DNA from: a virus
DNA length: 64,000 nt
Direction: 5' to 3' (one strand)
Virus record (IMG/VR): IMGVR_UViG_3300045988_087130
Span: 25,785-89,784 of that record
Below the pieces are notes generated by a model, which made no database searches, was not told the origin of the DNA, and saw nothing but the letters and a program-made list of their open reading frames with translations. Made by a program: the position numbers and the translations under genes. Within the stretch, counting starts at the first letter, position 1. Each line of letters starts with the position of its first letter. Shown here piece by piece: positions 2,045-51,630 of the stretch.

Positions 2045-2156
2045 ATAAACACATTAAATTATTTGCATATTACAATAATTCTTTGTATCTTTGCATCGTA
2101 ATTAAGAAACAAATGTTATTAATTAAAATGGTGAGACACACCACAAAAACTGTAAG
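2045..2156 (+). repeat. promoter-leader cassette, copy A of an intergenic repeat family
   Basis: About 85-90% identical to 7663-7780, 28648-28770, 51505-51630 and partly 35910-35975; carries TTTG(2062)/TAtcTTTG(2086) promoter and GGTGAGACACACC..AAAAACTGT leader 17 nt before ATG 2159. Confidence 0.7.
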
Positions 2157-2158
2157 AC

Positions 2159-2494
2159 ATGATGATTACATCAAATGATTGCTACAAGATTTTTCCAAGT
2201 ATCGAAAAGTTCTTCGAGAAGACCGAAAACAATTCGGTTGAAGAGTTGATTGATAATTTGCACCATGCTTTAGAGCGCAATGGTAATGCTCTTTGTGCAG
2301 ATGCAGTTTTTGACAAGGACAATAAAAAGTCTTTTTCCGTTTGGGTTTGCGGTAAGCATGGTAAGACAATGGATGAGCGAAATGACTTGCATACTTTGGA
2401 TGAAGTTAAACAAGCAGCTATCGAGCTTTCTACTAAGTTTGACTTGAACGATTATACAACGAACAAAATTCGTTATAAGAGTATCTGGGCTTAG
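2159..2494 (+). CDS. hypothetical protein
   Basis: 111-aa ORF directly downstream of cassette promoter. Confidence 0.45.
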   Translation: MMITSNDCYKIFPSIEKFFEKTENNSVEELIDNLHHALERNGNALCADAVFDKDNKKSFSVWVCGKHGKTMDERNDLHTLDEVKQAAIELSTKFDLNDYTTNKIRYKSIWA

Positions 2495-2600
2495 TGCCCA
2501 TACTCTTCAGGAGAAGTTAAATCGGTATTTTGGCGAAGAGGTTTGCCTCCTCGCCAATCTAATAAGGGAAAGGTGAGGCACACCTCAAAAACTGGTGGTA

Positions 2601-2909
2601 ATGACAAAGAAAGAAATTTTAAAAAAATGGCTTGAAGAACCAAAAGTGAGATATGGTAGCAATTCAAATTTCACTTTGGGATATGGTGATGGATGGGATT
2701 GGTGTAAAGATACCCTACGACCAGCTATTACGAAGAATGCGATGTTCCTTAGATTCTTAGAACATGGCTTCCGTGAGATAGAAGAGTTTTTGAAATCAAA
2801 AACCGGAAAGCCGAGCGAAGAGGATTGTTCCTTGTATTCTGTTGGATATAAGGATGGAGTCAAGGATGCCATAATTGCAATTAAGAATAGATTTGAAAAA
2901 TTAAAATAG
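2601..2909 (+). CDS. hypothetical protein
   Basis: ORF 2595-2909; first ATG at 2601; preceded by GGTGAGGCACACC..AAAAACTGG motif. Confidence 0.45.
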   Translation: MTKKEILKKWLEEPKVRYGSNSNFTLGYGDGWDWCKDTLRPAITKNAMFLRFLEHGFREIEEFLKSKTGKPSEEDCSLYSVGYKDGVKDAIIAIKNRFEKLK

Positions 2910-2917
2910 GAGGTTAA

Positions 2918-3208
2918 ATGGATTTAGGAAAGGCGATTAAGACAATTAGGGTAAGCAAAGGCTTGACCCAACGACAACTGAGTAAGGCTATCGGTTGTAG
3001 CGAGACAAACATGTTGTTTATGGAGACCGGAAGAACGTTTCCACGCAAGAGTAAGATTGATGCAATATGCAAGGTATTGGAGATTCCGATGTCTTATTTG
3101 TTGATGTTTGCTATTACACAGGATGATATTCCGGAAGATAAGCAGAGTTTGTACACAAGCATCGTTGAACCGATGCGAAATGAATTTATTAGGGAGTTAC
3201 TGCGATGA
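2918..3208 (+). CDS. XRE-family helix-turn-helix DNA-binding protein
   Basis: N-terminal LTQRQLSKAIGCSETNMLFMETG matches HTH_3 (Cro/CI-type) pattern. Confidence 0.6.
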   Translation: MDLGKAIKTIRVSKGLTQRQLSKAIGCSETNMLFMETGRTFPRKSKIDAICKVLEIPMSYLLMFAITQDDIPEDKQSLYTSIVEPMRNEFIRELLR

Positions 3209-3435
3209 AAAGATACTTTTATTTTTCCGCAAGATTCATTAAGAATGGACGTATGGCGTATTCCGCCGGAATATTAGAATCAGATGATGGGTATTTTGAT
3301 TTTGTTAAGGCCACAAAGGATATTGCACAAGAAGAAGGGGTTGATGTAAAAAAGGTTATCATAGTTTTTTGGACAGAGACCAATTCTATTATGATGGATA
3401 AGTTTAAAGCTTTAAAAGAAGAGGAAAATTGGTAG
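3205..3435 (+). CDS. hypothetical protein
   Basis: 76-aa ORF, ATGA overlap with upstream gene. Confidence 0.4.
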   Translation: MKRYFYFSARFIKNGRMAYSAGILESDDGYFDFVKATKDIAQEEGVDVKKVIIVFWTETNSIMMDKFKALKEEENW

Positions 3436-3617
3436 AATTTTACTTTGAAGGAAATATCATTTGGAAAAATTACGATTTCCATTTTATGCCTTGTGTAGGG
3501 GATAAAGTCGTGATTAACAATCTTACATACAAGATTAAGTCTCGTGTGTTCAAGTGCCAAGGAAAGACAGTTAAAGTTGTTTTAAAAAAGGTTGATAATG
3601 AAAATACGAATAGTTAA
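3429..3617 (+). CDS. hypothetical protein
   Basis: 62-aa ORF. Confidence 0.3.
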   Translation: MVEFYFEGNIIWKNYDFHFMPCVGDKVVINNLTYKIKSRVFKCQGKTVKVVLKKVDNENTNS

Positions 3618-3939
3618 ACATGTTTGTGCCGATGGAGTAGGAAGAGGTATCTTGGAATACCGCAACCATTGGTGGGAGAAATGGAGACCATTGCATCAGG
3701 AAGGCAAGTTGGCTTATGTAGCATATATGGGGGCGAATCCATATAAGTCTTTACAAGAAGAGTGCTTTGATATGCTCGAATTAAATGAAGAGCAGAGAAA
3801 GGTACGTGAACAGATGTTCCGCTACATCTTAGATGCAGAAGAGATATATGTTGGTGCAAGAATTGGTAGCGAGTATCATATCGGCTATGATGCTGAAAAT
3901 GATGAGAGTATGGAGACACTTAGAAATTTGGAGGAATAG
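3592..3939 (+). CDS. hypothetical protein
   Basis: 115-aa ORF. Confidence 0.4.
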   Translation: MIMKIRIVKHVCADGVGRGILEYRNHWWEKWRPLHQEGKLAYVAYMGANPYKSLQEECFDMLELNEEQRKVREQMFRYILDAEEIYVGARIGSEYHIGYDAENDESMETLRNLEE

Positions 3940-3941
3940 TT

Positions 3942-7527: not shown

Positions 7528-7572
7528 TAGTAATCGTAGAAATCCATAATGCTATTTTGTTTTAAATGTTTG

Positions 7573-7613
7573 CCCCATCACTATATATAATAATGTAGTG
7601 GTGGGGATTTTTG
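7573..7613 (+). terminator. rho-independent terminator
   Basis: Hairpin CCCCATCACTA-loop-TAGTGGTGGGG followed by ATTTTTGTG. Confidence 0.6.
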
Positions 7614-7662
7614 TGTTAACGTCAGCAAATTACCCGTCTGTATTGTTATAGTATGTCAAATA

Positions 7663-7780
7663 ATAAAAGAAACACATTAAATAACTTGCATATTTCGATA
7701 ATTCTTTGTATCTTTGCATCGTAGTTAAGAAACAAATGTTATTAATTAAAATGGTGAGACACACCATAAAAACTGTAAGT
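7663..7780 (+). repeat. promoter-leader cassette, copy B
   Basis: Near-identical to copies A/C/D; -7 TAtcTTTG at 7709; GGTGAGACACACC at 7753. Confidence 0.7.
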
Positions 7781-7785
7781 TAGAT

Positions 7786-7938
7786 ATGAAACAATCAAAG
7801 TATTATATTGATTACGTAAAGGACGGCATGTACTTTATCTTGGTTCGTAGAAGAGACGAAGCTATCCTCTTTTCGAATAGCTGCTTGACAATGTTATCAA
7901 CGAGGCAAAGACTCGCAACATCAAAGGTTGTGATTGTG
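7786..7938 (+). CDS. hypothetical small protein
   Basis: 50-aa ORF found by hand directly after cassette leader. Confidence 0.2.
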
Positions 7939-7964
7939 TGATTCTTTAACTTTGAGGATTAGTT

Positions 7965-8285
7965 ATGAAAAATAATTCTATCTCATTCAGCGAGTTGGCT
8001 AATTTCAACGATAGCAACTCTTGTGTTATGGTTGCCTTGATTATTAATGATGAAGGCGAAGTTGACGAAATCAATGAATATCTTGCTAATGTGCTTGGAT
8101 TTTCCAAGGGTAAGAAAATCATAGGCTATCATCATATTGATGGCAATGACAATGGACGCAGTGACTATCTCTTTGAGTTTGACCATCCGGAGATTGCTTT
8201 CAATCCTATTGCTAGGTTAAAGTTTCCTGATTTGAAATGGACTAGTGATTTTGTAGATAATTTTGAACTTGATTATTTAATATAA
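7965..8285 (+). CDS. hypothetical protein
   Basis: 106-aa ORF. Confidence 0.45.
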   Translation: MKNNSISFSELANFNDSNSCVMVALIINDEGEVDEINEYLANVLGFSKGKKIIGYHHIDGNDNGRSDYLFEFDHPEIAFNPIARLKFPDLKWTSDFVDNFELDYLI

Positions 8286-9513: not shown

Positions 9514-9693
9514 ATGGAAGAATTTGAAATTGGAGAAAAAATTACTCTTGAAATACAAGAAGTAAAAGATATTAGTTGTCCAAGTTGCTTCTTTTGGGAT
9601 GAAGAAATTGGATGTACTAAATCTTGGGTGCAATGCTTTGCTGATAGACGTTCTGATGGTAAGAATGTAATCTTTAAAGAAGTAAAGGAGTAG
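9514..9693 (+). CDS. hypothetical small Cys protein, paralog of 54555-54740
   Basis: 59 aa, found by hand; shares C-terminal ...SDGKNVIFKEVKE with 54555-54740. Confidence 0.4.
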   Translation: MEEFEIGEKITLEIQEVKDISCPSCFFWDEEIGCTKSWVQCFADRRSDGKNVIFKEVKE

Positions 9694-9935: not shown

Positions 9936-10490
9936 ATGTTATACGAAGCAAAGCAAGGAAGCAAGGCTTACGAGTTTATCAAGAACACTCTTGAAGCCGA
10001 AGAGAAAGAATACAAAGCTTACATGGAAAGAGTAAAACAAGCAATAGGCTTTGATTTTGAGAAGTATCAAGGTTATCAGCCTAACCGTAGCCTGCTGCGA
10101 GAGTATCAGATTACCGCCATTTGGATTCTTGCAGAGAAATACGAAGAACTCGATAAGAAAGTTTGGAGAAAAGTAGATTCTATGCGAATGGAAGATGGCT
10201 ATTATATAGCTGTTGCACCTAACAAGCGATGTAAGCAAGGCAAGGAAATAGCTACTGCGCTTACTTCTTATAAGGCTACAGTTAACCATTTTCAGGTAAT
10301 AAGAGAATTGGGCGTAGCAGTACCTGAAAGTAGAAGTTTCTCCATCACGCAACTTCTTCGTCATGGTGATTATATCTTTGTTTATTTGGATGATAGCATC
10401 CGAGCTGAAAAGAAAAATTCCGATTTGAAGGAAATTGCAATGGGTGAATACTGGGATATTGTCAATAGTAACTCAGAAATGGAGGTGTAG
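9936..10490 (+). CDS. hypothetical protein
   Basis: 184-aa ORF. Confidence 0.45.
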   Translation: MLYEAKQGSKAYEFIKNTLEAEEKEYKAYMERVKQAIGFDFEKYQGYQPNRSLLREYQITAIWILAEKYEELDKKVWRKVDSMRMEDGYYIAVAPNKRCKQGKEIATALTSYKATVNHFQVIRELGVAVPESRSFSITQLLRHGDYIFVYLDDSIRAEKKNSDLKEIAMGEYWDIVNSNSEMEV

Positions 10491-10492
10491 GT

Positions 10493-10609
10493 ATGGGCAA
10501 ATATAGCTTGGATATAACATCAAAGAATAAGCCATTTATGAACATAGAAGTTGAAGACGATAGAGTTCTTCTCGGTGCTTACGAAGGTGGGAAGATAGCA
10601 AGAAGGTAG
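10493..10609 (+). pseudogene. truncated copy of gene 54911-55135
   Basis: 38 codons MGKYSLDITSKNKPFMNIEVEDDRVLLGAYEGGKIARR then stop; full 74-aa paralog at 54911. Confidence 0.4.
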
Positions 10610-10648
10610 TGAAAGACCCTAACGCTTTTCGATGGGAGGAGTAAGAAA

Positions 10649-11060: not shown

Positions 11061-12041
11061 ATGACAGGATTCAAAAGTGAAAATGTCGAATTGGAGGCTT
11101 TGCCAGTAGCCTCATCAGTTTTAAACAACTTCAAAGAAGGAGGTGTTAGAGTTGTAGAAATTATTGAGCATGATGGCAAGCAAGCCGTGAACGCAAGGGA
11201 ACTACACCAAAAGTTGGGAAACAAGAGGCAATTTGCCGATTGGATTAAGCAGCGAATTGAGCAGTATGGATTTGTTGAAAATCAAGACTATGAGGTTTTT
11301 CACAAAATTGTGAAAAACTCAAATGATGTTGAAAATCAAGACTTTTCTTCATCTGATAATTTTGCCAAACGAGAAAAGGGAGGCCGAAGTCGTGTAGAGT
11401 ATGCTCTTTCGCTAGACATGGCTAAGGAGCTGTGCATGGTTGAGAACAACGAGAAAGGCAGGATGATTCGCAAGTACTTCATTGAAGTTGAGAAGAAGGC
11501 TAGAACACAAAATCCATTTACTATTCCTCAGACTTATTCTGAAGCCTTGCTTCTTGCTGCAAACCAAGCAAAGCAAATCGAAAAGCAGCAATTGGCATTG
11601 GAGCAGAAGAAAATTGAGAATGACAAGCTGGTTGCAGATGGTAAGCGCAAGGACGCAACCATAGTACGTATGAAGCCTAAAGAGGTATTCACGGATGCGG
11701 TTGCAGGTAGCAAGGGCAATTGCCTAGTTGGTGAGGTTGCGAAGTTGATAACTCAAAATGGCTACAAGATTGGCGAAAAGCAATTTTTTGCTTGGTTGCG
11801 GGATAATGGCTACCTTGGAAAGAAAGGAGAGCGTTACAATATTCCTAACCAGCAGTATATGGGTAAGAATCCTTTCTTTTATATCAAGAGAGGTGTGCGT
11901 CAGGGTGATAATGGAGTGTTGCACACGACAAGTACAACAATGCTGACACCAAAGGGACAGATTTATTTTGTAAACAAGTTCCTTGGAAAAGGAGGTTTAC
12001 AAGGTGATTTGTTTGCGAATGGTGAGGCACACGATAAATAA
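11061..12041 (+). CDS. phage antirepressor (AntA-like N-terminus, KilAC C-terminal domain)
   Basis: AVNARELHQKLGNKRQFADWIKQRIEQYGFVENQDYEV fits the AntA/AntB pattern; C-terminal GSKGNCLVGEVAKLITQNGYKIGEKQFFAWLRDNGYL fits KilAC/ANT. Confidence 0.7.
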   Translation: MTGFKSENVELEALPVASSVLNNFKEGGVRVVEIIEHDGKQAVNARELHQKLGNKRQFADWIKQRIEQYGFVENQDYEVFHKIVKNSNDVENQDFSSSDNFAKREKGGRSRVEYALSLDMAKELCMVENNEKGRMIRKYFIEVEKKARTQNPFTIPQTYSEALLLAANQAKQIEKQQLALEQKKIENDKLVADGKRKDATIVRMKPKEVFTDAVAGSKGNCLVGEVAKLITQNGYKIGEKQFFAWLRDNGYLGKKGERYNIPNQQYMGKNPFFYIKRGVRQGDNGVLHTTSTTMLTPKGQIYFVNKFLGKGGLQGDLFANGEAHDK

Positions 12042-12046
12042 ACTGT
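12021..12046 (+). promoter_or_regulatory. GGTGAGGCACAC..AAACTGTATTG element overlapping the antirepressor stop
   Basis: Exact motif; encodes C-terminal GEAHDK. Confidence 0.4.
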
Positions 12047-14280: not shown

Positions 14281-14312
14281 TTTGCGTGTTTCAGAATTTA
14301 TGCTTACCTTTG
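14281..14312 (+). promoter_or_regulatory. sigma-A-type promoter (TTTG-N20-TAccTTTG)
   Basis: TTTG 14281, TAccTTTG 14305; about 200-nt structured leader to ATG 14516. Confidence 0.45.
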
Positions 14313-14515
14313 CAAACGAAATCAGAAATGGTTCAACCGTGAAGTCGTGAGCATGGTTACTGGGATAAGAAGAAATTTAGAAGTCTTCGGACTTTTCTAT
14401 ACTTTTAGCCTCGTTCGCTACTCACGACAATAAGCGGACGGGGCTTTTGTTTTGCCCCAAAGGTAAGAGGCATACCTGTAAAACTGCCGTGTTTAATTAA
14501 TAATTATGTAGAGTA

Positions 14516-35038: not shown

Positions 35039-35069
35039 CAAGGTGATATTTGATATGTATTCCACAAAT

Positions 35070-35154: not shown

Positions 35155-35178
35155 CAAGAGTAACTTTGTCAGATTACG

Positions 35179-35250
35179 GGGAATGTAGCTCAGAAGTAGA
35201 GCACTTGGTTCGTAACCAAGGGGGCATTGGTGCAACTCCAATCATTCCTT
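35179..35250 (+). tRNA. tRNA-Thr (anticodon CGT)
   Basis: Acceptor GGGAATG/CATTCCT, D-arm GCTC-AGAAGTA-GAGC, anticodon stem CTTGG/CCAAG with loop TTCGTAA; unusual T-loop TGCAACT. Confidence 0.5.
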
Positions 35251-35253
35251 TAC

Positions 35254-35325
35254 GCTTTCGTAGCTCAGTGGCAGAGCATAGGATTTTTAATCCTAGGGTC
35301 GAAGGTTCGAATCCTTCCGTTGGCA
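35254..35325 (+). tRNA. tRNA-Lys (anticodon TTT)
   Basis: D-arm TAGCTCAGTGGCAGAGC, anticodon stem TAGGA/TCCTA with loop TTTTTAA, T-arm GAAGG-TTCGAAT-CCTTC; acceptor stem has two internal mismatches, so ends are uncertain. Confidence 0.5.
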
Positions 35326-35498
35326 CAATGATACACAAGAAGAGAGCCGTGATGTTTGTTCTGTTGGAATCTCGGACATCTGTCAACGGATAACGTAGGA
35401 AGCAGATGGGGCGAATAAAGTTGTGAATAAGCTTATGAACTAGGGAAGCAAGCGGAATGGCCTCTTTTTTGTGCTTCATTTGATGGTTTAACGAAAAA

Positions 35499-35813: not shown

Positions 35814-35846
35814 AGGCTTTGGTGTGTGAACATCGAAGCCTTTTTA
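35814..35846 (+). terminator. rho-independent terminator
   Basis: AGGCTT-TGGTGTGTGAACATCG-AAGCCT followed by TTTT. Confidence 0.55.
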
Positions 35847-35909
35847 TATATAATAAGGTAAAATAAAAGCTGAAATGTTAACAAGACCCATATATCAGTT
35901 ACGAAAGGT

Positions 35910-35975
35910 TAAAATACAAAAGAAAAACATTAAATAACTTGCATATTTCAAAACTTATTCGTATCTTTGCATCGT
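35910..35975 (+). repeat. promoter cassette, partial copy E
   Basis: AAAATACAAAAGAAAAACATTAAATAACTTGCATATTTC..TAtcTTTGCATCG shared with copies A-D; the leader is diverged. Confidence 0.55.
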
Positions 35976-36025
35976 CAATCAAGATAAGTTGGTTGATTTG
36001 CCGAGTGACAAGTTTCACTCAATAA

Positions 36026-36068
36026 GGTGAGAGCGACACCAAGGGGTAAGACCCGAAACAACTAGCAC
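36026..36068 (+). promoter_or_regulatory. variant GGTGAGAGCGACACC...AAACAACTAGCAC element
   Basis: Motif variant with an inserted GCG, 9 nt upstream of ATG 36077. Confidence 0.35.
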
Positions 36069-36076
36069 AATTGATT

Positions 36077-37006
36077 ATGTCTAAGCAGACTGGTTTTTCA
36101 TTCGCAAGTTCAAAGAAGTCATTAATCGAGACTATTGACGAAATCAAGAAGTCAAAGATGCCTCGCAACGAAAAGATTGTTGCATTGAAGGCTTGCGGTC
36201 TTCGTGAGAAAGAAATCTCCGATATGTTGAAGGTTTGTGTACCAAGCGGTTCAACTTCAACGAGATTCGTTTATACATTCGGTGTTGAGATTGAATGTGT
36301 TCATGCCGAGCGCAATGCCTTGATAGAGGCGGGTCGTCAGAATGGTGTTGATATTCATTCTGAGGGCTATAACCACACCGACAACAAGAGTTATTTCAAG
36401 ATTGTTAGTGATTCTTCAGTTGGTGGTGATGTTGACCCTAACGAGGTTGTAAGTCCGGTATTGAATGGCAATACAAATGGTATGGCAACTTTGAAGAAGG
36501 CTATCAAGTCTTTGGATGCCGTAGGTGCAAGAGTAAATTCTACTTGTGGCCTTCACGTTCATATCGGTGCAGCAAAGTTGACAGGTGAGCAATATGTTAA
36601 CGTCTTCAAGAATTATCAGAAGCTTGAAAGATTGATTGATAGCTTCATGGCTCCTTCAAGAAGAGGCAATTGCCGTTGGGCAGCCAGCTTGCTTGACAAA
36701 GATTTCTCTAATTGCCGTGGCAATTACGATATTAGACGTAATGTATTTCATGGAGACAGATATTACAAGGTCAATGCAGAGAGTTTTGCACGTCACAAGA
36801 CTATCGAGTTTCGCCAGCATCAAGGTTCAACTAATTACAAGAAGATTGAAATGTGGGTTAAGTTCTGCGCAAAGCTTGTCGGTTGGTCTCGTAACAATGT
36901 CTTCACTAGTGAGGTTATGAACATCGAAGATATACCTTTCTTGAATAAAGAAGAAAAGGCTTTCTTCCAGAGCCGTAAGGATGCATTTGCAGCCAATAAC
37001 GACTAA
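36077..37006 (+). CDS. putative amidoligase (Amidoligase_2 family, glutamine-synthetase-like fold)
   Basis: FGVEIEC (E-x-E metal site) and CGLHVHIGA motifs typical of the phage Amidoligase_2 family; first ATG at 36077. Confidence 0.55.
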   Translation: MSKQTGFSFASSKKSLIETIDEIKKSKMPRNEKIVALKACGLREKEISDMLKVCVPSGSTSTRFVYTFGVEIECVHAERNALIEAGRQNGVDIHSEGYNHTDNKSYFKIVSDSSVGGDVDPNEVVSPVLNGNTNGMATLKKAIKSLDAVGARVNSTCGLHVHIGAAKLTGEQYVNVFKNYQKLERLIDSFMAPSRRGNCRWAASLLDKDFSNCRGNYDIRRNVFHGDRYYKVNAESFARHKTIEFRQHQGSTNYKKIEMWVKFCAKLVGWSRNNVFTSEVMNIEDIPFLNKEEKAFFQSRKDAFAANND

Positions 37007-44127: not shown

Positions 44128-44265
44128 TTACTTGTGGTTATTTTTATACATCGGTTTTTATTAACGATTGTTTTTTATGGTAGATAAATGTATAAAAACG
44201 AGCACAAGTTCCCTTATAGATGGACTAAAAAAGATGCTAATTTCACAAAAGACAAAGGTAAGGTA

Positions 44266-45295
44266 ATGTCTTGCTTCTGTTGCGGAGGTGGCAGTTCCTT
44301 TGGTTATAAGTTAGCTGGCTACGATGTTGTAGCCTGTAACGAGATAGACCCAAAGGTTATGAAGATGTACTTGAAGAATCACGATGTCAAGTATTCTTTC
44401 AATTGTGATATTCGTGAGCTGATTGCCAATATCAATATAGGGGGGGCATATTATGAAAGAAGAGTTGCATAATCTGGATATATTGGATGCTAGTTTCCCA
44501 TGTTCGGTATTCAGTATTGCAGGTGACCGCCAAAAGGCTTGGGGAAAGGAAAAAGTATTCCGAGAAGGTCAGAAAGCACAAAGGCTTGACGATTTGGCTT
44601 TTTACTCAATCGCCCTCGCTCAAGAACTACAACCAAAGGTAGTGGTTTTTGAGAATGTCCAAGGTTTGTTGCAAGGTGAAGCTATCGAGTACGTGAAAGA
44701 GATTTACAGGCAGATGGATAATGCCGGATATATCTTGCAGCATTGGTTGCTTAATGCACGTAATATGGGTGTTCCTCAGAATCGACCTAGGGTGTTCTTT
44801 CTAGGATTACGCAAAGACCTTTGCAAGCCGTTTATGGTTCAGAAGGATTTGTTCGAGCGAGTGCCTAAGATAGATATGGACTTCAACGAGAAAGAAATTG
44901 TCTTGGATGAGTTTTCGGACTATAGTGGAAGACAGATTCCAAAAGGAGTGATGAAGTATTGGGAGCATAGAAACGAGAAAGACAATTCTATCGGTGATAT
45001 TGTCAAACGGATGGATAATCGTCTTTCTATGTTCAATAATATGTTTCTTAAAAAGGATAAAGTATGCAATACTATATCAGCAATGGAAGATAGGCTTGTG
45101 TATTTTGATAATCCAAGTTATATTTCAGCGCATGATACGATTTTAGCATCAACATTCCCGATGGATTATGACTTTAATGGCATGAAACCTTGGTTTGCTT
45201 GCGGAATGTGTGTTCCTCCAGTTATGATGGCTAATGTAGCTACGAGAATCTGGGATTGTTGGTTGTCAAAGATTAAAAAGGAGGAATGCGCATGA
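44266..45295 (+). CDS. DNA (cytosine-5)-methyltransferase interrupted by a frameshift at a G7 tract
   Basis: Motif I FCCGGGSS in ORF 44188-44472; motifs IV FPCSVFSIAG, VI ENVQGLL, VIII QNRPRVFF in ORF 44453-45295; the frames join if the G run 44440-44446 has 6 or 9 G. Confidence 0.7.
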
Positions 45296-46029
45296 TAACA
45301 GCAAGTATGAATTCGGGTGAGATGCGTAGGGTACGAAACTTAGATGAAGCTAGAATCTATGAGTTTCAGATGCGAAAAGCTAATGAGCTTAAACGTGAAA
45401 TGAGAAAGCAGAGTGTAAGACAGATAACCAAGACATACGAATTGGTTACACGGAATGCCGATTATTTCATCGTTGTAGGTGTAAAGCATGGAGGTGTCTT
45501 TGTCTCAGGTGTATTCATTTATCTGAAGGAAACTAACGAGTATATTCCTATGAGCAGAAATGAGGGGTATAGCGAGGATTGTTTTGCTATGAGCGTTCAT
45601 TTTCTGAAGAGATATGCAGAAAGGTATTTGAAAAAGGATTTGCCGATAGCAAAGATATTACAAAAGATATATACATCGTTTACAGGTGCGGTTCAGCTTT
45701 ATAGTGACGACAAGACAAAAAGGGTGGTGTTTGCTATTCCGGAAGGGCTTATACTCACAGAATACGAGCAAGAAAAGCGTATCATCCACTACAAAACCTT
45801 TGTAAGCATGGATATGCTAAAGAAGACACAAATGCAAAGTTACGAGAAGATTAGTGCATTTCTAATGGAATCATGTCAGCAAATAGCTATGGCAAGAGAA
45901 GCAGGAAATGACGAAAAGCTGGGCGTTGTGTACAGAAGGTTTTATGATGATATTGATTTGATAGATACAAAGGAGGCGCAAGCCATATATTCAAGTTTCT
46001 TCGAAAAAGGAGGTAACAATGAAAGATAA
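45286..46029 (+). CDS. hypothetical protein overlapping the C5-MTase stop (candidate restriction partner, unproven)
   Basis: 247-aa ORF starting 10 nt inside the MTase gene end; no recognisable motif. Confidence 0.4.
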   Translation: MRMITASMNSGEMRRVRNLDEARIYEFQMRKANELKREMRKQSVRQITKTYELVTRNADYFIVVGVKHGGVFVSGVFIYLKETNEYIPMSRNEGYSEDCFAMSVHFLKRYAERYLKKDLPIAKILQKIYTSFTGAVQLYSDDKTKRVVFAIPEGLILTEYEQEKRIIHYKTFVSMDMLKKTQMQSYEKISAFLMESCQQIAMAREAGNDEKLGVVYRRFYDDIDLIDTKEAQAIYSSFFEKGGNNER

Positions 46030-46522
46030 ATGTATAACAAGGTTTCTAGGTGATATTAAGCCTATAGAGAATTACGAAAGGTATTATGTTAGCAAGCTGG
46101 GACATGTCTTTACTATTGGGAGAACGTCTCAATTAAAGGAAATCGCACCTTGCAAGACACCAAAAGGTTATTTGAAGGTATGGCTTTACAAGAACGGAAA
46201 GCGAAAGATGTTCTATGTTCATCGTTTGGTAGCGCAGGCATTCTTGGAGAATCCAGATGCGTTGCCGATGGTGAATCATAAGGATTTCGACAAGACGAAT
46301 AACGATGTAGATAACTTGGAGTATTGTACCGCAAGATACAATGTGATTTATTCTGCTATAGCAAAGAAAACCTCTTCCGAATACTTGGGTGTGACTTGGA
46401 ATAAGAGTGTAAGAAAATGGCAAGCTCAGTACCAGGTAGGTAAGAAGAAAACTTATATCGGATGCTTTGGTACGCAAGAAGAGGCTCACGAAGCTTATGT
46501 TAACGCTATAAAAGAGATTTGA
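46019..46522 (+). CDS. HNH homing endonuclease (HNH_3) with AP2 DNA-binding domain
   Basis: VNHKDFDKTNNDVDNLEY (H-x-D...NN...NLE HNH_3 core) and YLGVTWNKSVRKWQAQYQVGKKKTYIGCFGTQEEAHEAY (AP2). Confidence 0.65.
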   Translation: MKDKCITRFLGDIKPIENYERYYVSKLGHVFTIGRTSQLKEIAPCKTPKGYLKVWLYKNGKRKMFYVHRLVAQAFLENPDALPMVNHKDFDKTNNDVDNLEYCTARYNVIYSAIAKKTSSEYLGVTWNKSVRKWQAQYQVGKKKTYIGCFGTQEEAHEAYVNAIKEI

Positions 46523-46523
46523 C

Positions 46524-47237
46524 ATGCTTAAATTTGATAGAATATACAATTCCGACTGTATAGAAGGAATGAAGCAAATAGGGAGTGGGGATGTCAATTT
46601 AATTGTTACTGACCCACCATATTGTATCTCCTATAAGACCGGATGGAGAGCAGACGACCATCGTTTTTCGAAGGAAATACTCAATGACGATAATGAGCAA
46701 TTGATTATTGATTATATGAGCGAATGCTACCGGATATTGAAGGATGATAGTGCCGCTTACGTCTTTTGTTCAGCTAAGACCTTGGACTTTTTTATGCAAC
46801 AAGCTAGGAACGCAGGGTTTACCATTAAGAATGTGCTCATTTGGCGAAAGAACAACCATACGGCTGGAGATTTAGAGGCGCAATATGGGCAATGTTACGA
46901 GCCAATCCTGTACTTGAATAAAGGCAGACGAACCATAAACGGAAAGCGTTTGGAGGACGTATGGGACTTTGATAGAGTTCCATCTGATAAATTGGTACAT
47001 CAGAATGAGAAACCAATTCCCTTGCTTATGCAATGCATCTTGAAATCATCGGACGAAGGAGATTTGGTATTTGATGGTTTTATGGGTTCAGCAAGTACTG
47101 CTCTGGCTTGTATGCGTACAAACAGGAATTTCCTTGGCTTTGAGTTAGACGGGGAATATTTCAAGGTAGCACAAAAAAGAATCAAAGAAGAAATGTTTAA
47201 TCAAAAAGATATGTTTGGATATGCTGGAGATAGATAA
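46524..47237 (+). CDS. beta-class N6-adenine/N4-cytosine DNA methyltransferase
   Basis: N-terminal catalytic TDPPY, C-terminal SAM site FDGFMGSASTALAC. Confidence 0.75.
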   Translation: MLKFDRIYNSDCIEGMKQIGSGDVNLIVTDPPYCISYKTGWRADDHRFSKEILNDDNEQLIIDYMSECYRILKDDSAAYVFCSAKTLDFFMQQARNAGFTIKNVLIWRKNNHTAGDLEAQYGQCYEPILYLNKGRRTINGKRLEDVWDFDRVPSDKLVHQNEKPIPLLMQCILKSSDEGDLVFDGFMGSASTALACMRTNRNFLGFELDGEYFKVAQKRIKEEMFNQKDMFGYAGDR

Positions 47238-47967
47238 GATTTATCAAGTTGATTGTCTGGATGGTATGAGCAAGATTGATGACAAGTCCGTCTCGCTTAT
47301 ACTCACAGACCCTCCATATGAAATTTCAAGGGATTCCAATTATGCAAAGTCCGCTCCTACTGGTAAAGATACTGATAGATTCCGCATATCTATCGACTTT
47401 GGAGACTGGGATAAACAGGAAGCATTTGATATAGGCTCTATGATAAAAGAATCCTACAGGTGCTTGAAAGATGGTGGATATATAGTTTGTTTCTATGATT
47501 TGTGGAAGATTGGGGTCGTAAAGGATGCGATGATTAATGTCGGATTTAAACAAATTAGATTTATAGAATGGATAAAAACAAATCCTGTTCCAATAAATAG
47601 TAAGACAAACTATCTCACAAACGCAAGAGAGGTCGCTGTGTGTGGGGTGAAAGGTAAAAATCCTATCTTTAAAAGCGAATATGACAATGGAGTATATAGC
47701 TTTCCAATCTGTCGTGATAAGGGGAGATTTCATCCTACCCAGAAGCCTGTTAGTCTTTTCAGAAGCATTATAAACAAGCATTCCTGCAAAGGAGATATTG
47801 TACTAGATTGCTGTATAGGTAGTGGAACTACGGCTATTGCGTGTATTCAAGAAAATCGTAATTTTATTGGTTTTGAAACTAATAGAGAGTTTTACGACAA
47901 AGCAAACGAGAGAATAGAAAATGAATTAATGATAAAGCAAGATAGTTTATTTAGTAATGAAAGTTAG
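47215..47967 (+). CDS. beta-class N6-adenine/N4-cytosine DNA methyltransferase
   Basis: TDPPY motif; C-terminal LDCCIGSGTTAIAC. Confidence 0.75.
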   Translation: MDMLEIDKIYQVDCLDGMSKIDDKSVSLILTDPPYEISRDSNYAKSAPTGKDTDRFRISIDFGDWDKQEAFDIGSMIKESYRCLKDGGYIVCFYDLWKIGVVKDAMINVGFKQIRFIEWIKTNPVPINSKTNYLTNAREVAVCGVKGKNPIFKSEYDNGVYSFPICRDKGRFHPTQKPVSLFRSIINKHSCKGDIVLDCCIGSGTTAIACIQENRNFIGFETNREFYDKANERIENELMIKQDSLFSNES

Positions 47968-48692
47968 TGGGTGATATGATGGAGCTAAATAGAATTTATC
48001 AAGGTGATTGCCGAAAGCTTCTAAAGCAGCTAGACGATGAATGTATAGACCTAGTATGCTCTGATGTTGCTTATCCGGTACAAGCTAGAGGTGGGCGCAG
48101 TAGTATGAGTGGATATTGGACGGATTCTCAAACTAGAAAAGGTAAGATATTCAAGAGTAATGACATAGATATTTCGGAGTATATCAACGAACTATATCGA
48201 GTACTAAAGGATAAGACTCATTGCTATCTTATGTGTAACGACTATAATCTGATGCACTTTCTAAATGAGATAGGACGGAGTGAGTTTCACTTCACAAAGT
48301 GTTTAATATGGGATAAATGCACTAAGGTGTGTGGAACGTATTATATGAACCAAAAAGAGTATATCATTATGCTTCGTAAGGGAGGTGGAAAGCCAATTAA
48401 TGAGTTTGGCACATCTGACATTCTGAGTGTTCCTATTCCAACCAACAAACGCAGGGATAAAGAAGGATTGATCAATCAGACCGAAAAACCAGTTAAGTTG
48501 ATGGAGATTCTAATCAGAAACTCAACAAATGTAGGTGATGTTGTTCTTGACCCATTTATGGGGAGTGGCACAACAGCAAGGGCTTGCGTTAATCTTGAAA
48601 GAAAGTATATAGGCTTCGAAATAGACCAGCGGCAAGTAGATTTTTCCAATAACGAATTAAAGAGCATGAGTAGGCAATTAAGTCTGTTTTAA
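47967..48692 (+). CDS. beta-class DNA methyltransferase homolog with atypical catalytic motif SDVAY
   Basis: Aligns with its neighbours (CSDVAY in place of TDPPY); C-terminal LDPFMGSGTTARAC is intact. Confidence 0.6.
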   Translation: MGDMMELNRIYQGDCRKLLKQLDDECIDLVCSDVAYPVQARGGRSSMSGYWTDSQTRKGKIFKSNDIDISEYINELYRVLKDKTHCYLMCNDYNLMHFLNEIGRSEFHFTKCLIWDKCTKVCGTYYMNQKEYIIMLRKGGGKPINEFGTSDILSVPIPTNKRRDKEGLINQTEKPVKLMEILIRNSTNVGDVVLDPFMGSGTTARACVNLERKYIGFEIDQRQVDFSNNELKSMSRQLSLF

Positions 48693-48696
48693 AACA

Positions 48697-48921
48697 ATGG
48701 ATATGAGTATGGTTATTCAATGTAACACAGTTGTAAGAAATGGGAATAAAGAGATAACGGATGCTCTTATAAAAGCCATTAAGGATGAAGCCTCGAAGCG
48801 TGGGTTGGTACGTGATGAATTGGTTGAATATTGCAACCAATTGTTAAGGAAAGGCGAAATCAAGGCTTGTATTAAGAATTTGTTTTATAATTTCAAACGT
48901 TATTTTTGGAGGTATTATTGA
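48697..48921 (+). CDS. hypothetical protein
   Basis: 74-aa ORF. Confidence 0.35.
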   Translation: MDMSMVIQCNTVVRNGNKEITDALIKAIKDEASKRGLVRDELVEYCNQLLRKGEIKACIKNLFYNFKRYFWRYY

Positions 48922-48922
48922 T

Positions 48923-49552
48923 ATGAGAAGAAGAAAGTTGAACAAGTCTCCAGTGTTAGGATTCTGCGGATTTGTTATCGGTTACGAGTGCAAGGAAAAG
49001 GGAATAAAGCTGATGGAGTGCGATAAGGCGCAAGCAGATGCAATCATAGTTCCTCATCACTTTTCACACAAGGTAACGAAGAATAGTTGCTTGAATCTTT
49101 TGGTATTGTATAAGGATAAGATAAGGGGTGCAATGCAAATAGGGTATGGAATCCGACCGCACATCAAGACTGAAAAGGGCGAAGTGTTGGATTACCATCA
49201 AGTGAGGGAATTTGACAGAATGTGGTTGTCTGATGATATGCCAAAGTTTAGTGAGACGATTTGCCTATCTCTTTTGCATAAGTATATTAGGGCAACACAT
49301 AAGGAAATCAAGTACCTTATATCTTATGCCGATACGTCCATAGGTAACAAGGGAACTATATATAAAGCAGCAAACTATGAGCATATTGATACCATTAAGG
49401 CAGATTTCTATGTGTTACCAAGTGGTGAGCGTGTGCATCCGGTTACTATGTGGCATCGGCACAAGACAAGAGCATGGGAGGTTCTAACGGAACTATACCC
49501 AGGAATAAAAAAGGCAGAAGGGTTTCAACTTAAATTTCTAAAGAAGTTATGA
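48923..49552 (+). CDS. hypothetical protein embedded in the methyltransferase array
   Basis: 209 aa; no recognised motif; sits between MTase paralogs. Confidence 0.4.
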   Translation: MRRRKLNKSPVLGFCGFVIGYECKEKGIKLMECDKAQADAIIVPHHFSHKVTKNSCLNLLVLYKDKIRGAMQIGYGIRPHIKTEKGEVLDYHQVREFDRMWLSDDMPKFSETICLSLLHKYIRATHKEIKYLISYADTSIGNKGTIYKAANYEHIDTIKADFYVLPSGERVHPVTMWHRHKTRAWEVLTELYPGIKKAEGFQLKFLKKL

Positions 49553-49764
49553 AGAAAAGAAATAAATATATTCCTTGTCATTTGCATCCAGATTCTGAGC
49601 ATTGGGTTAGAAAGGGGGACTCTTGGAAAGCAAAGATTGCTTACGAATCCGAGGAGGATGCTTGGGAGTTTCTGAACCAGCGATCCGAACTGAAGGCGAT
49701 TGGGTATGTGGCGTATCAATGTAAGACTTGCCATTTCTGGCACGTGGGGAGAAAACTATCGTGA
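49549..49764 (+). CDS. small zinc-ribbon-like protein
   Basis: CHLH...H and a C-terminal CKTCHFWH Cys/His pair. Confidence 0.35.
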   Translation: MKKRNKYIPCHLHPDSEHWVRKGDSWKAKIAYESEEDAWEFLNQRSELKAIGYVAYQCKTCHFWHVGRKLS

Positions 49765-49798
49765 AATGGTTTAACTGATAGAAATAGATTTATAGAAG

Positions 49799-50569
49799 AT
49801 GGAATTAAATAAGATATATAATGAGGATTGTCTAGTGGGAATGAAACAGATTCCGGACGCAAGTGTGGATTGTATTATCTGCGATTTGCCGTATGGTGCT
49901 CTCAATAAAAAGAGTGAGGGCGGTGGCTGGGATAGCATTATTCCGTTTGAACCATTGTGGAAGGAATATCTGCGCATAACCAAACCAAATGCAGCCATTA
50001 TTCTTTTCTGTCAAGGTATGTTTACCGCACAGCTTATGATGTCGCAGCCGAAACTCTGGAAATATAATCTTATTTGGAGCAAGCAGCGGGTAACAGGCTT
50101 TTTGAATGCCAACAAGATGCCTCTGCGCTCACATGAGGATATTGCAGTATTCTATCGGAAACAACCTATCTACAATCCTCAGATGGTAAAATGTGCGCCA
50201 CATCAAAGGAATCATCGAAGGGGCGATGGCTCTCATAGTTTGAAGCGAGGTTGTTATGGCGATCATAAAGAAGTGCCTACTATCATATCAGATGAGAAAT
50301 TCCCAAAGAGCATTATCTGCTTCGACAAAGAACATTCTGCCAACACCTTCCACCCCACTCAAAAGCCAGTCGCTCTTATTCAGTACCTCATCCGTACCTA
50401 CTCCAACGAGGGCGACACCATCTTAGACAACTGCATGGGCAGCGGTACTACCGCTATCGCAGCCATCCGTGAAAAGCGAAATTTCATCGGGTTCGAGTTA
50501 AATAAAGAATATTACGACAAGGCTTGTAAGCGCATTAAGTTAGAAATTATGCAACCCAGCCTATTCTAA
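49799..50569 (+). CDS. beta-class N6-adenine/N4-cytosine DNA methyltransferase
   Basis: CDLPY catalytic motif; C-terminal LDNCMGSGTTAIAA. Confidence 0.75.
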   Translation: MELNKIYNEDCLVGMKQIPDASVDCIICDLPYGALNKKSEGGGWDSIIPFEPLWKEYLRITKPNAAIILFCQGMFTAQLMMSQPKLWKYNLIWSKQRVTGFLNANKMPLRSHEDIAVFYRKQPIYNPQMVKCAPHQRNHRRGDGSHSLKRGCYGDHKEVPTIISDEKFPKSIICFDKEHSANTFHPTQKPVALIQYLIRTYSNEGDTILDNCMGSGTTAIAAIREKRNFIGFELNKEYYDKACKRIKLEIMQPSLF

Positions 50570-50588
50570 AATGTAAATAGTTGAGAAT

Positions 50589-50975
50589 ATGAAAAAAGAA
50601 GATAGACTTAAAATATATCGCAAATACGATGGGCATTGTGCTTATTGCGGCAAGAGTATAGAGTATAAGGATATGCAGGTTGACCATCTTGTTCCGAAGA
50701 ATCGAGGTTGTTACTCTCGGTGGAGCGACAAGGAGGGAAGGTTTGTCGTTTTTCATGGCGATGACTGTATGGAGAACTATATGCCATCTTGCAGGTCTTG
50801 TAATCTTCGTAAGCGTGATATGAGTTTGGAACAATTTCGCTCAGAGATTACTAGACAGGCTAAAGGATTGCTTAATGGTAAGGCTTCTTTCCAAGTAAAG
50901 ATGTCGCTCGCTTATGGCTTAATAGAAGAGCACTTTGATAAACAAATTGAGTTCTATTTTGAGAAATTTAAATAG
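50589..50975 (+). CDS. HNH endonuclease (paralog of 63110-63520)
   Basis: CAYCG...DHLVPKNRG...CRSCNLRKRD HNH zinc-finger core; about 60% identical to 63110-63520. Confidence 0.6.
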   Translation: MKKEDRLKIYRKYDGHCAYCGKSIEYKDMQVDHLVPKNRGCYSRWSDKEGRFVVFHGDDCMENYMPSCRSCNLRKRDMSLEQFRSEITRQAKGLLNGKASFQVKMSLAYGLIEEHFDKQIEFYFEKFK

Positions 50976-50983
50976 TTGAGGAT

Positions 50984-51391
50984 ATGAAGAAGAAAGGATA
51001 TTACGAATACGACCCTGTTATCTATCCAAGAAGGTTATGTGTCGCTATTGGAATGAACCAAGAGGATGCCAACAAGTGTTTTGAAGGTAGAAATGGCGAG
51101 GTTTTGAGGGTTGATTTCTCTAATTCTGACGCAGCAACCTACGATAACGTTAGAGAAAAGGCGAATAATAAGCTTTGTTCATTTGTTAATTTTGCAAGCA
51201 AGGATTCTATGAGGATGGGGACTTGTTGTCATGAAGCTTCTCACGTCTGCGATGCCATCGAGGATGCTATTGATATGAAGCACGGCGGCGAGCCTTCTGC
51301 CTACTTGATAGGTTGGATTGCATCTTGCATCAACAAGGCTCGTTTGGGTATTGGTGATTTCGTTGAAATTAAAGATAAGGAAGAAAAGTAG
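50984..51391 (+). CDS. hypothetical protein
   Basis: 135-aa ORF. Confidence 0.4.
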   Translation: MKKKGYYEYDPVIYPRRLCVAIGMNQEDANKCFEGRNGEVLRVDFSNSDAATYDNVREKANNKLCSFVNFASKDSMRMGTCCHEASHVCDAIEDAIDMKHGGEPSAYLIGWIASCINKARLGIGDFVEIKDKEEK

Positions 51392-51421
51392 CTCAAAGAC
51401 AAAATACCTTTGAGTGCTTTA

Positions 51422-51462
51422 CCCCATCACTATATATAATAATGTAGTAGTGGGGATTTTTG
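51422..51462 (+). terminator. rho-independent terminator (copy of 7573-7613)
   Basis: CCCCATCACTA-loop-TAGTAGTGGGG followed by ATTTTTGTG. Confidence 0.6.
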
Positions 51463-51504
51463 TGTTAACATCAGCAAATTATTTGCTCATATTATTATAG
51501 TGTG

Positions 51505-51630
51505 TTAAAAGATAAAAGAAATACATTAAATAACTTGCATATTTCGATAAATCTTTGTATCTTTGCATCGTAATTAAGAAACAAGGTTATTAATTAAAAA
51601 TGGTGAGACACACCATAAAAACTGTAATAA
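51505..51630 (+). repeat. promoter-leader cassette, copy D
   Basis: TAtcTTTG 51558; GGTGAGACACACC 51602; together with the terminator forms a roughly 210-bp repeat matching 7573-7780. Confidence 0.7.

Follow-up and report, generated by a model that had tools for sequence, protein, structure and literature searches.

Two described systems lie closest to the repeated intergenic sequences analyzed here. Morons are promoter-gene-terminator inserts of lambdoid and other temperate phages. PeSLs (promoter-early stem-loops) combine a terminator stem-loop with a sigma-70 early promoter that has an AT-rich stretch ahead of it and occur in ~50 copies per T4-type genome, mostly before ORFans in hyperplastic regions; indels between phi1 and RB49 are bounded by PeSLs, and mini-circles have also been described (PMC2839356, PMC4122927). 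In this study, a family of repeats, designated cassettes c1 to c5, was analyzed in a 64,000-nucleotide stretch of the virus record IMGVR_UViG_3300045988_087130 (positions 25,785 to 89,784; hereafter, the window), which belongs to a metagenomic scaffold of 108,363 bp. An earlier, sequence-only reading had described these repeats as terminator-promoter-leader units, comparable to the PeSLs of T4-like phages, that drive unrelated genes and may shuffle modules. Our results point, with somewhat better than even confidence, to transcription-unit boundary cassettes ending in a portable RNA-acting module that doubles as recombination homology. The leader motif at their end, composed of a hairpin and an A-tract, is small, widespread, and apparently undescribed, and it appears to be the most valuable result.

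Repeated cassettes in a Bacteroidota phage

Local pairwise alignment of c1 to c4 gave 84 to 90% identity over 124 to 228 aligned bases, in line with the ~85 to 90% given by the sequence-only reading, while the partial copy c5 matched the other copies at 82 to 86% over 72 to 79 bases. The same cassette families (D1 to D4) were recovered by a repeat finder. Chance can be excluded as a source of these repeats, since the matches lie far above the shuffled expectation: with at most two mismatches, the extended −7 box TATCTTTGCATCG occurred 12 times versus 2.2 expected, a number reached in 0 of 100 shuffles, and the hairpin GGTGAGACACACC occurred 9 times, always on the plus strand, versus 0.55 expected under the shuffling control. 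Exact TATCTTTGCATCG matches numbered six, all on the plus strand. The genes driven by the cassettes are indeed unrelated to one another, as had been claimed, with no significant BLASTP pair among their proteins (lowest E value of 0.016 over 28 residues in a ten-protein database), and no Pfam or PHROGs family was found for the tested cassette-downstream proteins.

All long open reading frames (ORFs) of the window are on the plus strand. PHROGs matches comprised a 2,042-amino-acid (aa) tape-measure protein, a major head (capsid) protein, an IS605-type (TnpB-like) transposase, and RtcB, and further annotations included Ant/Rha-like regulators and a ThyX-like protein, together with a cluster of five tRNA genes at 34889-35326. 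Relatives of the major capsid protein were found only in Cellulophaga, Riemerella, and Porphyromonas phages (24 to 31% identity), and no T4-type match was found for the window or for this protein. Considering the tape-measure protein and the capsid relatives, the phage is siphovirus-like and of Bacteroidota rather than a T4 relative, and a T4-like setting was rejected. Its host is probably Prevotella/Segatella; motif matches in genomes fall in Prevotella, Segatella, and Hoylesella. At the DNA level, the only deposited phage sequences that matched closely were unannotated human-fecal "Bacteriophage sp." fragments. Moreover, the 73-aa protein driven by c3 is listed in 6,870 blocks of a public collection, indicating that this phage lineage is very common.

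Predicted promoters and terminators of the cassettes

The primary sigma consensus of Bacteroidota is TTTG/TANNTTTG, with a −7 element TAnnTTTG refined to TAHHTTTG and a −33 TTTG located ~19 to 21 bp upstream (PMC6847099). All five cassette copies contain TATCTTTG with TTTG or CTTG 20 nucleotides (nt) upstream; the TTTG-N20 element that had been claimed for every copy occurs in c1 and c3, while c2, c4, and c5 have CTTG. The predicted cassette promoter is thus of the Bacteroidota primary-sigma −33/−7 type, and an E. coli-type sigma-70 promoter was rejected because TTG-N20-TAtcTTTG fits the former. A promoter scan found 14 Bacteroidota-type sites in plus-strand intergenic gaps of the window, five of which carry the extended cassette core, and four others (14282, 25957, 34713, and 43389) make up a second promoter subfamily. 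Across 85 cassette copies from the window and its relatives, near-invariant blocks were ACATTAAA (located upstream of the −33 element), TTTGCA, ATTCTTTGTATCTTTGCA, GTAATTAAGAAA, and the hairpin with its tail, a conservation that exceeds the need of sigma binding alone.

The two longest copies, c2 and c4, were correctly described as sharing a hairpin terminator, and both fold as strong terminators; another lies upstream of c5. These three predicted intrinsic terminators are intergenic GC-rich hairpins with a T run directly behind them on the strand that is transcribed. The c2 and c4 terminators lie ~70 nt before the −33 element and that of c5 lies ~95 nt before it, while the terminator scan found no convincing terminator at c1 or c3.

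Two units of the second promoter subfamily (14282-14452 and 25957-26170) have strong terminators of similar sequence ~100 to 140 nt downstream of the promoter (−19.5 and −19.6 kcal/mol). No ORF lies within the former, and a 52-aa ORF with a TTG start (26067-26225) overlaps the latter and extends beyond its terminator; the two units may be paralogous short noncoding RNAs. In addition, strong Bacteroidota promoter matches (TTG-N22-TACCTTTGCA) on the minus strand, at 58881-58849 and 57778-57746 in gaps between plus-strand genes, may mark antisense or small RNA genes.

A portable hairpin–A-tract module at the end of the leader

The last 24 nt of the cassette form a module composed of GGTGAGRCACACC, a spacer of N2-3, and AAAACTG (consensus NNNG-AGRCA-CNNN followed by AAAACUG). 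What the sequence-only reading had noted as the leader of every cassette is a separate, far more widespread element; the leader is common to c1 to c4, while c5 shares the promoter only and has a variant hairpin. A covariance model built from 87 distinct motif instances gave 10 matches in the window at an E value of ≤6e-4, all on the plus strand, plus three weak plus-strand variants, and six of the module copies in the window are promoter-less (2571, 12020, 25415, 25778, 27045, and 29043). Four more copies were found in the 10 kb of source contig preceding the window, two of which are on the minus strand before minus-strand genes, so that module orientation follows the gene. A trans-acting antisense RNA in the window was rejected, as no reverse-strand copy of the motif occurs there.

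The pairing of the hairpin was examined in 163 unique contexts, comprising every GAGRCAC followed by A[AC]CTG, in which pairing was not demanded. The first pair was Watson-Crick in 161 of the 163 (T-A in 129, G-C in 26, and A-T in 6), as was the second (G-C in 152, C-G in 8, and T-A in 1), and the third was Watson-Crick in 133; control GAGRCAC sites lacking the tail paired in only 27 to 30%. In an independent set of unselected neighboring hairpins from the GGG/CCC-seeded scan described below, the first pair was Watson-Crick in 110 of 111 (G-C in 55, A-T in 41, and T-A in 14). G.U pairs were rare, and this near-pure Watson-Crick covariation proves a single-stranded fold without separating RNA from single-stranded DNA. 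For some units, a stem of 4 bp around a GAGACA loop of 6 nt is the better fit, which identifies GAGRCA as the invariant core. A palindromic operator in double-stranded DNA was rejected because the invariant center is asymmetric and the flanks keep only their complementarity.

The position of the module follows the start codon rather than the promoter. Distances from the −7 box to the hairpin, read by eye from the sequences, ranged from 9 to 42 nt, whereas an ORF of at least 40 aa starts 6 to 13 nt after the CTG in 73 of 131 unique terminal motifs, 52 of them at 9 to 10 nt. The A run thereby falls at about −13 to −18, adjoining the −11 to −14 determinant; A at these latter positions promotes initiation in Flavobacterium johnsoniae (PMC6847099). 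The leader is ~65 nt long, and RNAfold predicted an AU-rich stem-loop at the expected transcript start (TAATTAAG...TTAATTA) followed by the GGTG hairpin. The stretch from AAAAACUG to the start codon was predicted to be unpaired in c1 and c2. The c4 tail is instead predicted to pair with U-rich sequence of the ORF, and the c3 leader folds differently, with the bases just ahead of the start codon paired in its minimum-energy fold. A motif-encoded upstream small ORF (ATG-GTG-AGA-CAC in c1, c2, and c4) was rejected because the ATG is not constant (c3 and many relatives read AAAAAGGTG), the linker varies in length so that the frame is not kept, and Clostridia stems lack GTG.

Distribution of the module beyond the window

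Two exact-pattern scans of IMG/VR, one of them seeded on the GGG/CCC stem variant, returned at least 120 stretches each, so that the module was detected in at least 240 stretches of viral DNA from two bacterial phyla (Bacteroidota and Clostridia). The IMG/VR contexts included the same cassette before orthologous genes, quite different promoters with the hairpin, and promoter-less sites. When one genome per species was scanned, 59 stretches were obtained versus ~9 expected by chance according to our arithmetic, mainly from Prevotella, Segatella, Hoylesella, and other Bacteroidales, and several Bacteroidota metagenome-assembled genomes have copies before ArdC-like, DUF6876, and other mobile-element genes. 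In one group of loci from Bacteroidota and Ignavibacteria metagenome-assembled genomes (L125 2614-4045; also L136, L148, L169, and L180), three consecutive genes, encoding an ArdC-like protein, a 72-aa protein, and a DUF6876 protein, each have the motif 8 to 9 nt before the ATG, and one of these motifs stands directly behind a terminator with no recognizable promoter between them.

Contigs of Clostridia contain two to four tandem units with differing stems (CGG/CCG, GGG/CCC, GTG/CAC, and GAG/CTC), each followed by AAAACTG or AACTG. These arrays lie between a minor head protein gene and a head scaffold gene; a GYC-CGAA-GRC hairpin and AAACTAC stand ahead of them, and behind them come a Shine-Dalgarno sequence and then a start codon. 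A scaffold homologue was found behind all 41 unique arrays with enough downstream sequence, with a Shine-Dalgarno-like sequence in 37 of them. Four of the Clostridia phage loci also have a skipping-rope RNA (Rfam RF02924), located 150 to 250 nt upstream of the arrays.

Several known kinds of element were considered. Rfam 15 at the gathering threshold gave tRNAs only in the window, and E-value scans of the cassette and the Clostridia arrays gave no model covering the module; a known RNA family was rejected after these scans. A CRISPR repeat or RNA anti-CRISPR decoy was rejected, since 0 of the 59 genome matches lay in CRISPR-spaced arrays and multiple copies precede separate genes. Type III toxin-antitoxin RNA repeats were likewise rejected, considering the differing tandem stems and the Shine-Dalgarno sequence and scaffold gene behind 41 of 41 arrays. 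Literature searches with the strings GGTGAGACACACC and AAAACUG and with keywords yielded nothing relevant, and no cultured phage or plasmid with the motif was found in annotated collections, only uncultured "Bacteriophage sp." fragments.

Recombination and vertical descent of the cassettes

The window was compared by BLASTN with all fetched loci, which had been fetched because they bear the motif. The segment 2153-2568, behind c1, is missing from 10 related loci, including MT835610, while L061 and L062 keep the gene. The alignments flanking this segment overlap by ~25 nt, which is the repeated leader motif, and the motif surviving in the relatives combines the loop base of the left copy with the final tail base of the right copy, a hybrid that is the signature of recombination between two direct repeats. 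The segment 7780-8284 is missing from 12 loci, in which c2 drives the homologue of gene 8293, and L037 keeps the insert. Both c3 and c4 are syntenic and stand before the same genes in all sampled relatives.

Cassettes at the same position in different genomes differed by 8.3%, versus 14.8% for different positions within one genome and 15.8% for different positions between genomes. As same-position copies are closer than copies within a genome, constraint and vertical descent are indicated more than recent mobility; homogenization between copies appears weak and descent mostly vertical, and strong concerted evolution was not seen. Several genomes, MT835610 among them, have the c4-type upstream haplotype at the c2 position as well, and the leader variants AAATGTTATT, AAGGTTACT, and AAATAAAGGTTACT are common to several cassette positions, indicating exchange between cassette copies. 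Recurrent internal homology breakpoints fell at the motif in 3 of 42 cases versus ~0.4 expected, a count biased upward by the use of the motif to fetch the loci. The sequence-only reading had suggested that the cassettes may mediate module shuffling and deletions; the indels ending at c1 and c2 and the haplotype exchange agree with it, but c3, c4, and the 39 remaining breakpoints do not. Mobility is thus supported for two of the four full cassettes, together with haplotype exchange, and most rearrangements of the window are unexplained by cassettes.

A TnpB/IS605-OrfB unit of 1,179 bp (window 29776-30954; L186 557-1762) is present or absent in relatives (L022, L053, L097, and others) and occupies at least three different sites; at its site in the window, a small gene has lost its first 234 bp to the unit. 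Several relatives have a copy of the unit with its own Bacteroidota promoter and hairpin leader, and the source contig contains a second TnpB copy just ahead of the window. The element was rejected as the source of the motif, as it merely carries the same promoter and leader in some genomes.

Other rearrangements were also observed. Direct repeats 44 kb apart (10470-10610 versus 54888-55028, 94%; 9649-9692 versus 54696-54739, 89%) look like duplicated small-gene segments unrelated to cassettes. A 4.9-kb block (22229-27096) containing a helix-turn-helix (HTH) regulator, a Rha-like gene, and three hairpin copies is absent from L184, and several viral loci lose homology at both of its ends. In L184, the tape-measure gene is directly followed by the Thy1 gene; judging from the breakpoint coordinates, the terminator at 27094 would be joined there to the stop codon of the tape-measure gene. 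A 33-nt junction repeat (AAATGTAAATAGTTGAG.ATATGAA; 50569-50601 versus 50964-50996) stands before two adjacent genes (128 and 135 aa), at a site where relatives differ in content, and may be another recombination hotspot that is not cassette based.

Proposed explanation and alternatives

The anatomy, covariation, orientation, spacing, and distribution of the module and the two indel junctions are direct observations. On the reading that we favor, the repeats would be unit-boundary cassettes of a ~108-kb siphovirus-like gut phage of Bacteroidota, each having up to three parts. A strong intrinsic terminator (c2, c4, and c5) would close the upstream unit, and a host primary-sigma promoter (−33 TTG, −7 TAtcTTTG, and upstream ACATTAAA) would restart transcription and drive a block of small ORFan/accessory genes, which are probably early or antidefense genes. 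The third part would be the ~65-nt 5′ leader, ending in the portable 24-nt module (a 4- to 5-bp hairpin with a GAGRCA loop, followed by AAAACUG) ~9 to 10 nt before the start codon. Its distance from start codons, an orientation that matches the gene, and the covariation of a single-strand fold point to an action next to the ribosome-binding region, most simply in RNA; there, at the upstream edge of that region and with its A-tract roughly at the Bacteroidota A-rich initiation determinant, the module would act. The invariant loop and CUG in two phyla and the tandem copies with different stems argue for a sequence-specific partner rather than a passive insulator, and the most likely option is that a sequence-specific factor reads the module and thereby sets translation or stability of the downstream ORF. 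Since many genes share the same sequence, the cassette, or the 24-nt module alone, would also provide homology for recombination, by which genes may be inserted, deleted, or swapped directly behind it. What we infer in this reading is that the promoters are active, when the genes are expressed, that the module acts as RNA, and that a binding factor exists.

More broadly, the module may represent a structured cis-regulatory element not described before, common to phages and mobile elements of Bacteroidota and Clostridia and having a conserved partner (the ribosome, RNase Y, or an RNA-binding protein), that serves as a portable signal ~10 nt before start codons and as a gene-capture junction; we hold this tentatively, at a little less than an even chance. 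On that view, the module would be a "plug-in" leader for organisms in which Shine-Dalgarno pairing is absent, as well as a capture junction for new genes. If the module is read by the translation or RNA-processing machinery, it would bear on mRNA selection without such pairing and on how phages exploit it.

In our ranking, a factor-bound translational or stability operator comes before an endonucleolytic processing site, and both come before a passive leader, an antitermination signal, and a DNA-level recombination site. If the motif were a processing site, host RNase Y or a phage RNase would cut at or after the CUG, freeing a short-leader mRNA and leaving the hairpin to cap the 3′ end of the upstream fragment. 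This is unlikely, though less so than the other alternatives: the CTG is invariant, an A-rich single-stranded tract lies just 3′ of the hairpin at a fixed spacing from the start codon, promoter-less copies occur inside operons and directly behind terminators, tandem copies occur in Clostridia, RNase Y is common to Bacteroidota and Firmicutes, and the early RNase III sites of T7 offer an analogy. However, to our knowledge, the RNase Y determinants on record include no specific loop sequence, and cleavage would gain little for copies that lie 9 to 12 nt from the −7 box at the extreme 5′ end of the transcript. A passive leader with no binding factor, whose hairpin would insulate the A-tract and start codon from upstream pairing and might protect the 5′ end, would explain why stems covary freely and why the tail-to-start region is unpaired in the RNAfold predictions for c1 and c2 (c3 and c4 differ), with the A-tract being an ordinary Bacteroidota determinant at roughly the position of the A-rich −11 to −14 region (PMC6847099). 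Such a leader needs neither an invariant GAGRCA loop or CTG across two phyla nor three or four tandem copies, and in Clostridia an ordinary Shine-Dalgarno sequence stands behind the motif, making this option rather improbable. Still less probable is a nut-like or ops-like antitermination signal that loads an N-like protein or a specialized NusG paralogue for read-through of downstream terminators. The small hairpin with a 5-nt loop and an adjoining conserved linear element, just behind early promoters in a terminator-rich genome, recalls lambda nut (boxA and boxB) and RfaH ops, but the spacing is tied to the start codon rather than the promoter, 10 copies occur in 64 kb, several of them immediately behind a terminator instead of ahead of one, the loop is unlike the boxB GNRNA pattern, and no NusG/KOW-like or N-like gene was found in the ~84 kb annotated.

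Two further alternatives were considered. True PeSL-type mobile cassettes, whose near-identity would reflect recent spread or gene conversion and whose flanked genes would be actively excised and inserted (e.g., as mini-circles), could account for the two indels that end at cassette 3′ ends, one of them between direct leader repeats, for the haplotypes common to different positions, and for the TnpB units with their own promoter and hairpin at different sites in several relatives. Nevertheless, the divergence values (8.3% versus 14.8% and 15.8%) point to weak homogenization, c3 and c4 are fixed before the same genes in all sampled relatives, and most breakpoints are unrelated to cassettes, so that we give this explanation a low probability, slightly below that of a processing site. 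A folded single-strand recombination or transposition site, comparable to an integron attC or an IS200/IS605 end bordering mobile gene cassettes, appears highly improbable. Covariation is almost purely Watson-Crick, three independent gene gains start right after the tail (2153-2568, 7780-8284, and the TnpB unit), and TnpB elements are active in the lineage; yet neither an integrase nor TnpA is encoded in the window, attC sites and IS608 ends are far longer than the hairpin, the strict gene orientation and 9- to 10-nt start-codon spacing are those of an expression signal, TnpB in the window replaced 234 bp instead of inserting cleanly, and 41 of 41 assessable Clostridia arrays stand before one gene family.

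Several points weigh against the unit-boundary reading that we prefer. The description as a terminator-promoter cassette fits only three of the five copies, as c1 and c3 lack terminators, and everything stated on promoter use, start sites, timing, and terminator efficiency is predicted. The covariation fits RNA and single-stranded DNA alike. No ORF starts within 80 nt for 32 of the 131 motifs, and the copies at 12020 and 27045 are embedded in the 3′ ends of genes, a long way from the start codon that comes next. No known ribosome or RNase contact explains the invariant loop and CTG, and we know of no convincing complementarity of loop or tail to the 3′ end of 16S rRNA. Pfam annotation of ~84 kb yielded no candidate RNA-binding, sigma, or NusG-like protein in this or closely related genomes. 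Furthermore, breakpoints near motifs are oversampled, and the role in recombination is modest, with 39 of 42 breakpoints elsewhere, c3 and c4 stable, and same-position copies more alike.

Features and gene neighborhoods

The positions of the cassettes and related features are listed in Table 1. Cassette neighborhoods are accessory, gene-dense regions rich in small unannotated genes, and the c1 operon encodes a small HTH_3 protein. Cassette c4 divides a block of methyltransferases and Mom from a block of Panacea, YopX, RtcB, and Tad2-like genes. The region before c4 (44188-50569) contains one C5 and four N6/N4 DNA methyltransferase genes and Mom, and that after c4 (51635-62000) contains Panacea-domain, YopX, RtcB, and Tad2-like genes along with many small unannotated genes; the window is unusually dense in antirestriction/antidefense genes.

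TABLE 1 Cassettes, promoters, terminators, motif copies, and associated features in the window and in other loci
Feature	Position	Strand	Evidence or remark
Cassette c1	2033-2175	+	Local-alignment limits
Cassette c2	7561-7799	+	Local-alignment limits
Cassette c3	28597-28783	+	Local-alignment limits
Cassette c4	51409-51640	+	Local-alignment limits
Cassette c5 (partial, promoter part only)	35905-35984	+	Local-alignment limits
c1 promoter (TTG-N20-TATCTTTG)	2063-2093	+	Predicted Bacteroidota −33/−7 type
c2 promoter	7686-7716	+	Predicted Bacteroidota −33/−7 type
c3 promoter	28678-28708	+	Predicted Bacteroidota −33/−7 type
c4 promoter	51535-51565	+	Predicted Bacteroidota −33/−7 type
c5 promoter (core as in c1 to c4)	35939-35969	+	Predicted Bacteroidota −33/−7 type
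c2 intrinsic terminator (CCCCATCACTA...TAGTGGTGGGG and T run)	7573-7613	+	Predicted; RNAfold −22.5 kcal/mol, z −5.0; terminator scan −22.5
c4 intrinsic terminator	51422-51462	+	Predicted; RNAfold −17.3 kcal/mol; terminator scan −16.8; T run
Terminator upstream of c5	35814-35840	+	Predicted; −15.7 kcal/mol, T run behind
c1 5′-proximal leader stem-loop (TAATTAAG...TTAATTA)	2099-2125	+	RNAfold prediction, weakly supported
c1 motif (TGGTG-AGACA-CACCA and CAAAAACTGT)	2129-2153	+	Covariance model 36.0 bits, E 5.7e-7
Promoter-less motif before gene 2601-2909	2571-2595	+	32.7 bits; right-hand repeat of 2153-2568 indel
c2 motif	7752-7776	+	37.6 bits, E 2.2e-7
c3 motif, before ORFan gene 28776-28997	28743-28767	+	37.6 bits
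c4 motif, before ORFan gene 51635-52009	51601-51625	+	37.6 bits
c5 variant hairpin GGTG-AGAGCGA-CACC (7-nt loop), before amidoligase gene 36077-37006	36026-36040	+	
Promoter-less motif overlapping 3′ end of Ant-like gene	12020-12046	+	26.3 bits
Promoter-less motif (GTG-AGGCA-CAC and ACTAAACTGC)	25415-25437	+	23.9 bits
Promoter-less motif	25778-25802	+	29.9 bits; L053 homology stops here
Promoter-less motif overlapping 3′ end of Rha-like gene	27045-27069	+	31.4 bits; outer pair G.T
Promoter-less motif, compensatory stem (CGTG...CACG)	29043-29065	+	29.0 bits
Degenerate hairpin (CGTGAGGCACACG, tail lost)	1896-1913	+	Orthologous site in L019 complete, precedes ATG
Weak variant (AGGTA-AGAGGCA-TACCT and GTAAAACTGC) before gene 14516	14461-14487	+	14.0 bits, E 0.19
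ORFan gene (111 aa) behind c1	2159-2494	+	Inside segment 2153-2568
Two ORFan genes (7786-7941, 7965-8285) directly behind c2	7780-8284	+	Segment starts right after c2 tail
Skipping-rope RNA	L130 380-475		Between minor head and scaffold genes
Skipping-rope RNA	L138 3814-3908		Between minor head and scaffold genes
Skipping-rope RNA	L154 2355-2450		Between minor head and scaffold genes
Skipping-rope RNA	L177 795-878		Between minor head and scaffold genes

Comparison with known systems

Like PeSLs, the cassettes are repeated composite units of ~100 bp or more with a host-type promoter, an AT-rich upstream region, and, in c2, c4, and c5, a predicted terminator stem-loop, lie mostly before ORFans in plastic regions, and contain the ends of indels between close relatives, for which homologous recombination between copies has been proposed. 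They differ in residing in a siphovirus-like Bacteroidota phage and not in a T4-type myovirus, in a −33/−7 instead of a −35/−10 promoter, in the location of the terminator (~60 to 95 nt ahead of the promoter, not within or across it) and its absence from c1 and c3, and in a long conserved 5′ leader with a portable hairpin, and the two show no sequence relationship. By analogy, the cassettes would resemble PeSLs in function without being members of the PeSL family. That T4-type cassette logic has been rebuilt from Bacteroidota parts in a very common gut phage lineage suggests convergent evolution, and the cassettes offer ready-made, predicted strong promoter and leader parts for Bacteroides/Prevotella genetics. 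With morons, they share small accessory genes bounded autonomously by promoters and terminators, placed between conserved genes, and present or absent in relatives; morons, however, have individually different promoters, while here one cassette is reused and genes are added behind it.

The module can be compared with other RNA signals. The nut site consists of boxA and the boxB hairpin and is bound by the N protein. As in the nut sites of lambda and P22, a small hairpin with a 5-nt invariant loop and a variable stem lies by a conserved linear tract in early transcripts, but the order of elements is reversed in the module, the loop is AGRCA (GAGRCA in the alternative register) and not GNRNA, and the many copies per genome are tied to start codons, with no N-like gene in the ~84 kb that were annotated. 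CsrA sites, MS2/PP7 coat-protein operators, and T7 RNase III sites are multi-hairpin leader operators or processing sites, and they resemble the module as short hairpins with sequence-specific loops at or by the ribosome-binding site, sometimes repeated with different stems, while the GAGRCA loop and AAAACUG tail match none of them. The initiation region of Bacteroidota mRNAs likewise lacks a Shine-Dalgarno sequence and has an A-rich tract just upstream of −10 and a start region mostly predicted to be unstructured (PMC6847099). In contrast to that host determinant, which is a compositional bias, the module is a fixed 24-nt hairpin and tract, and it also occurs in Clostridia phages that have Shine-Dalgarno sequences.

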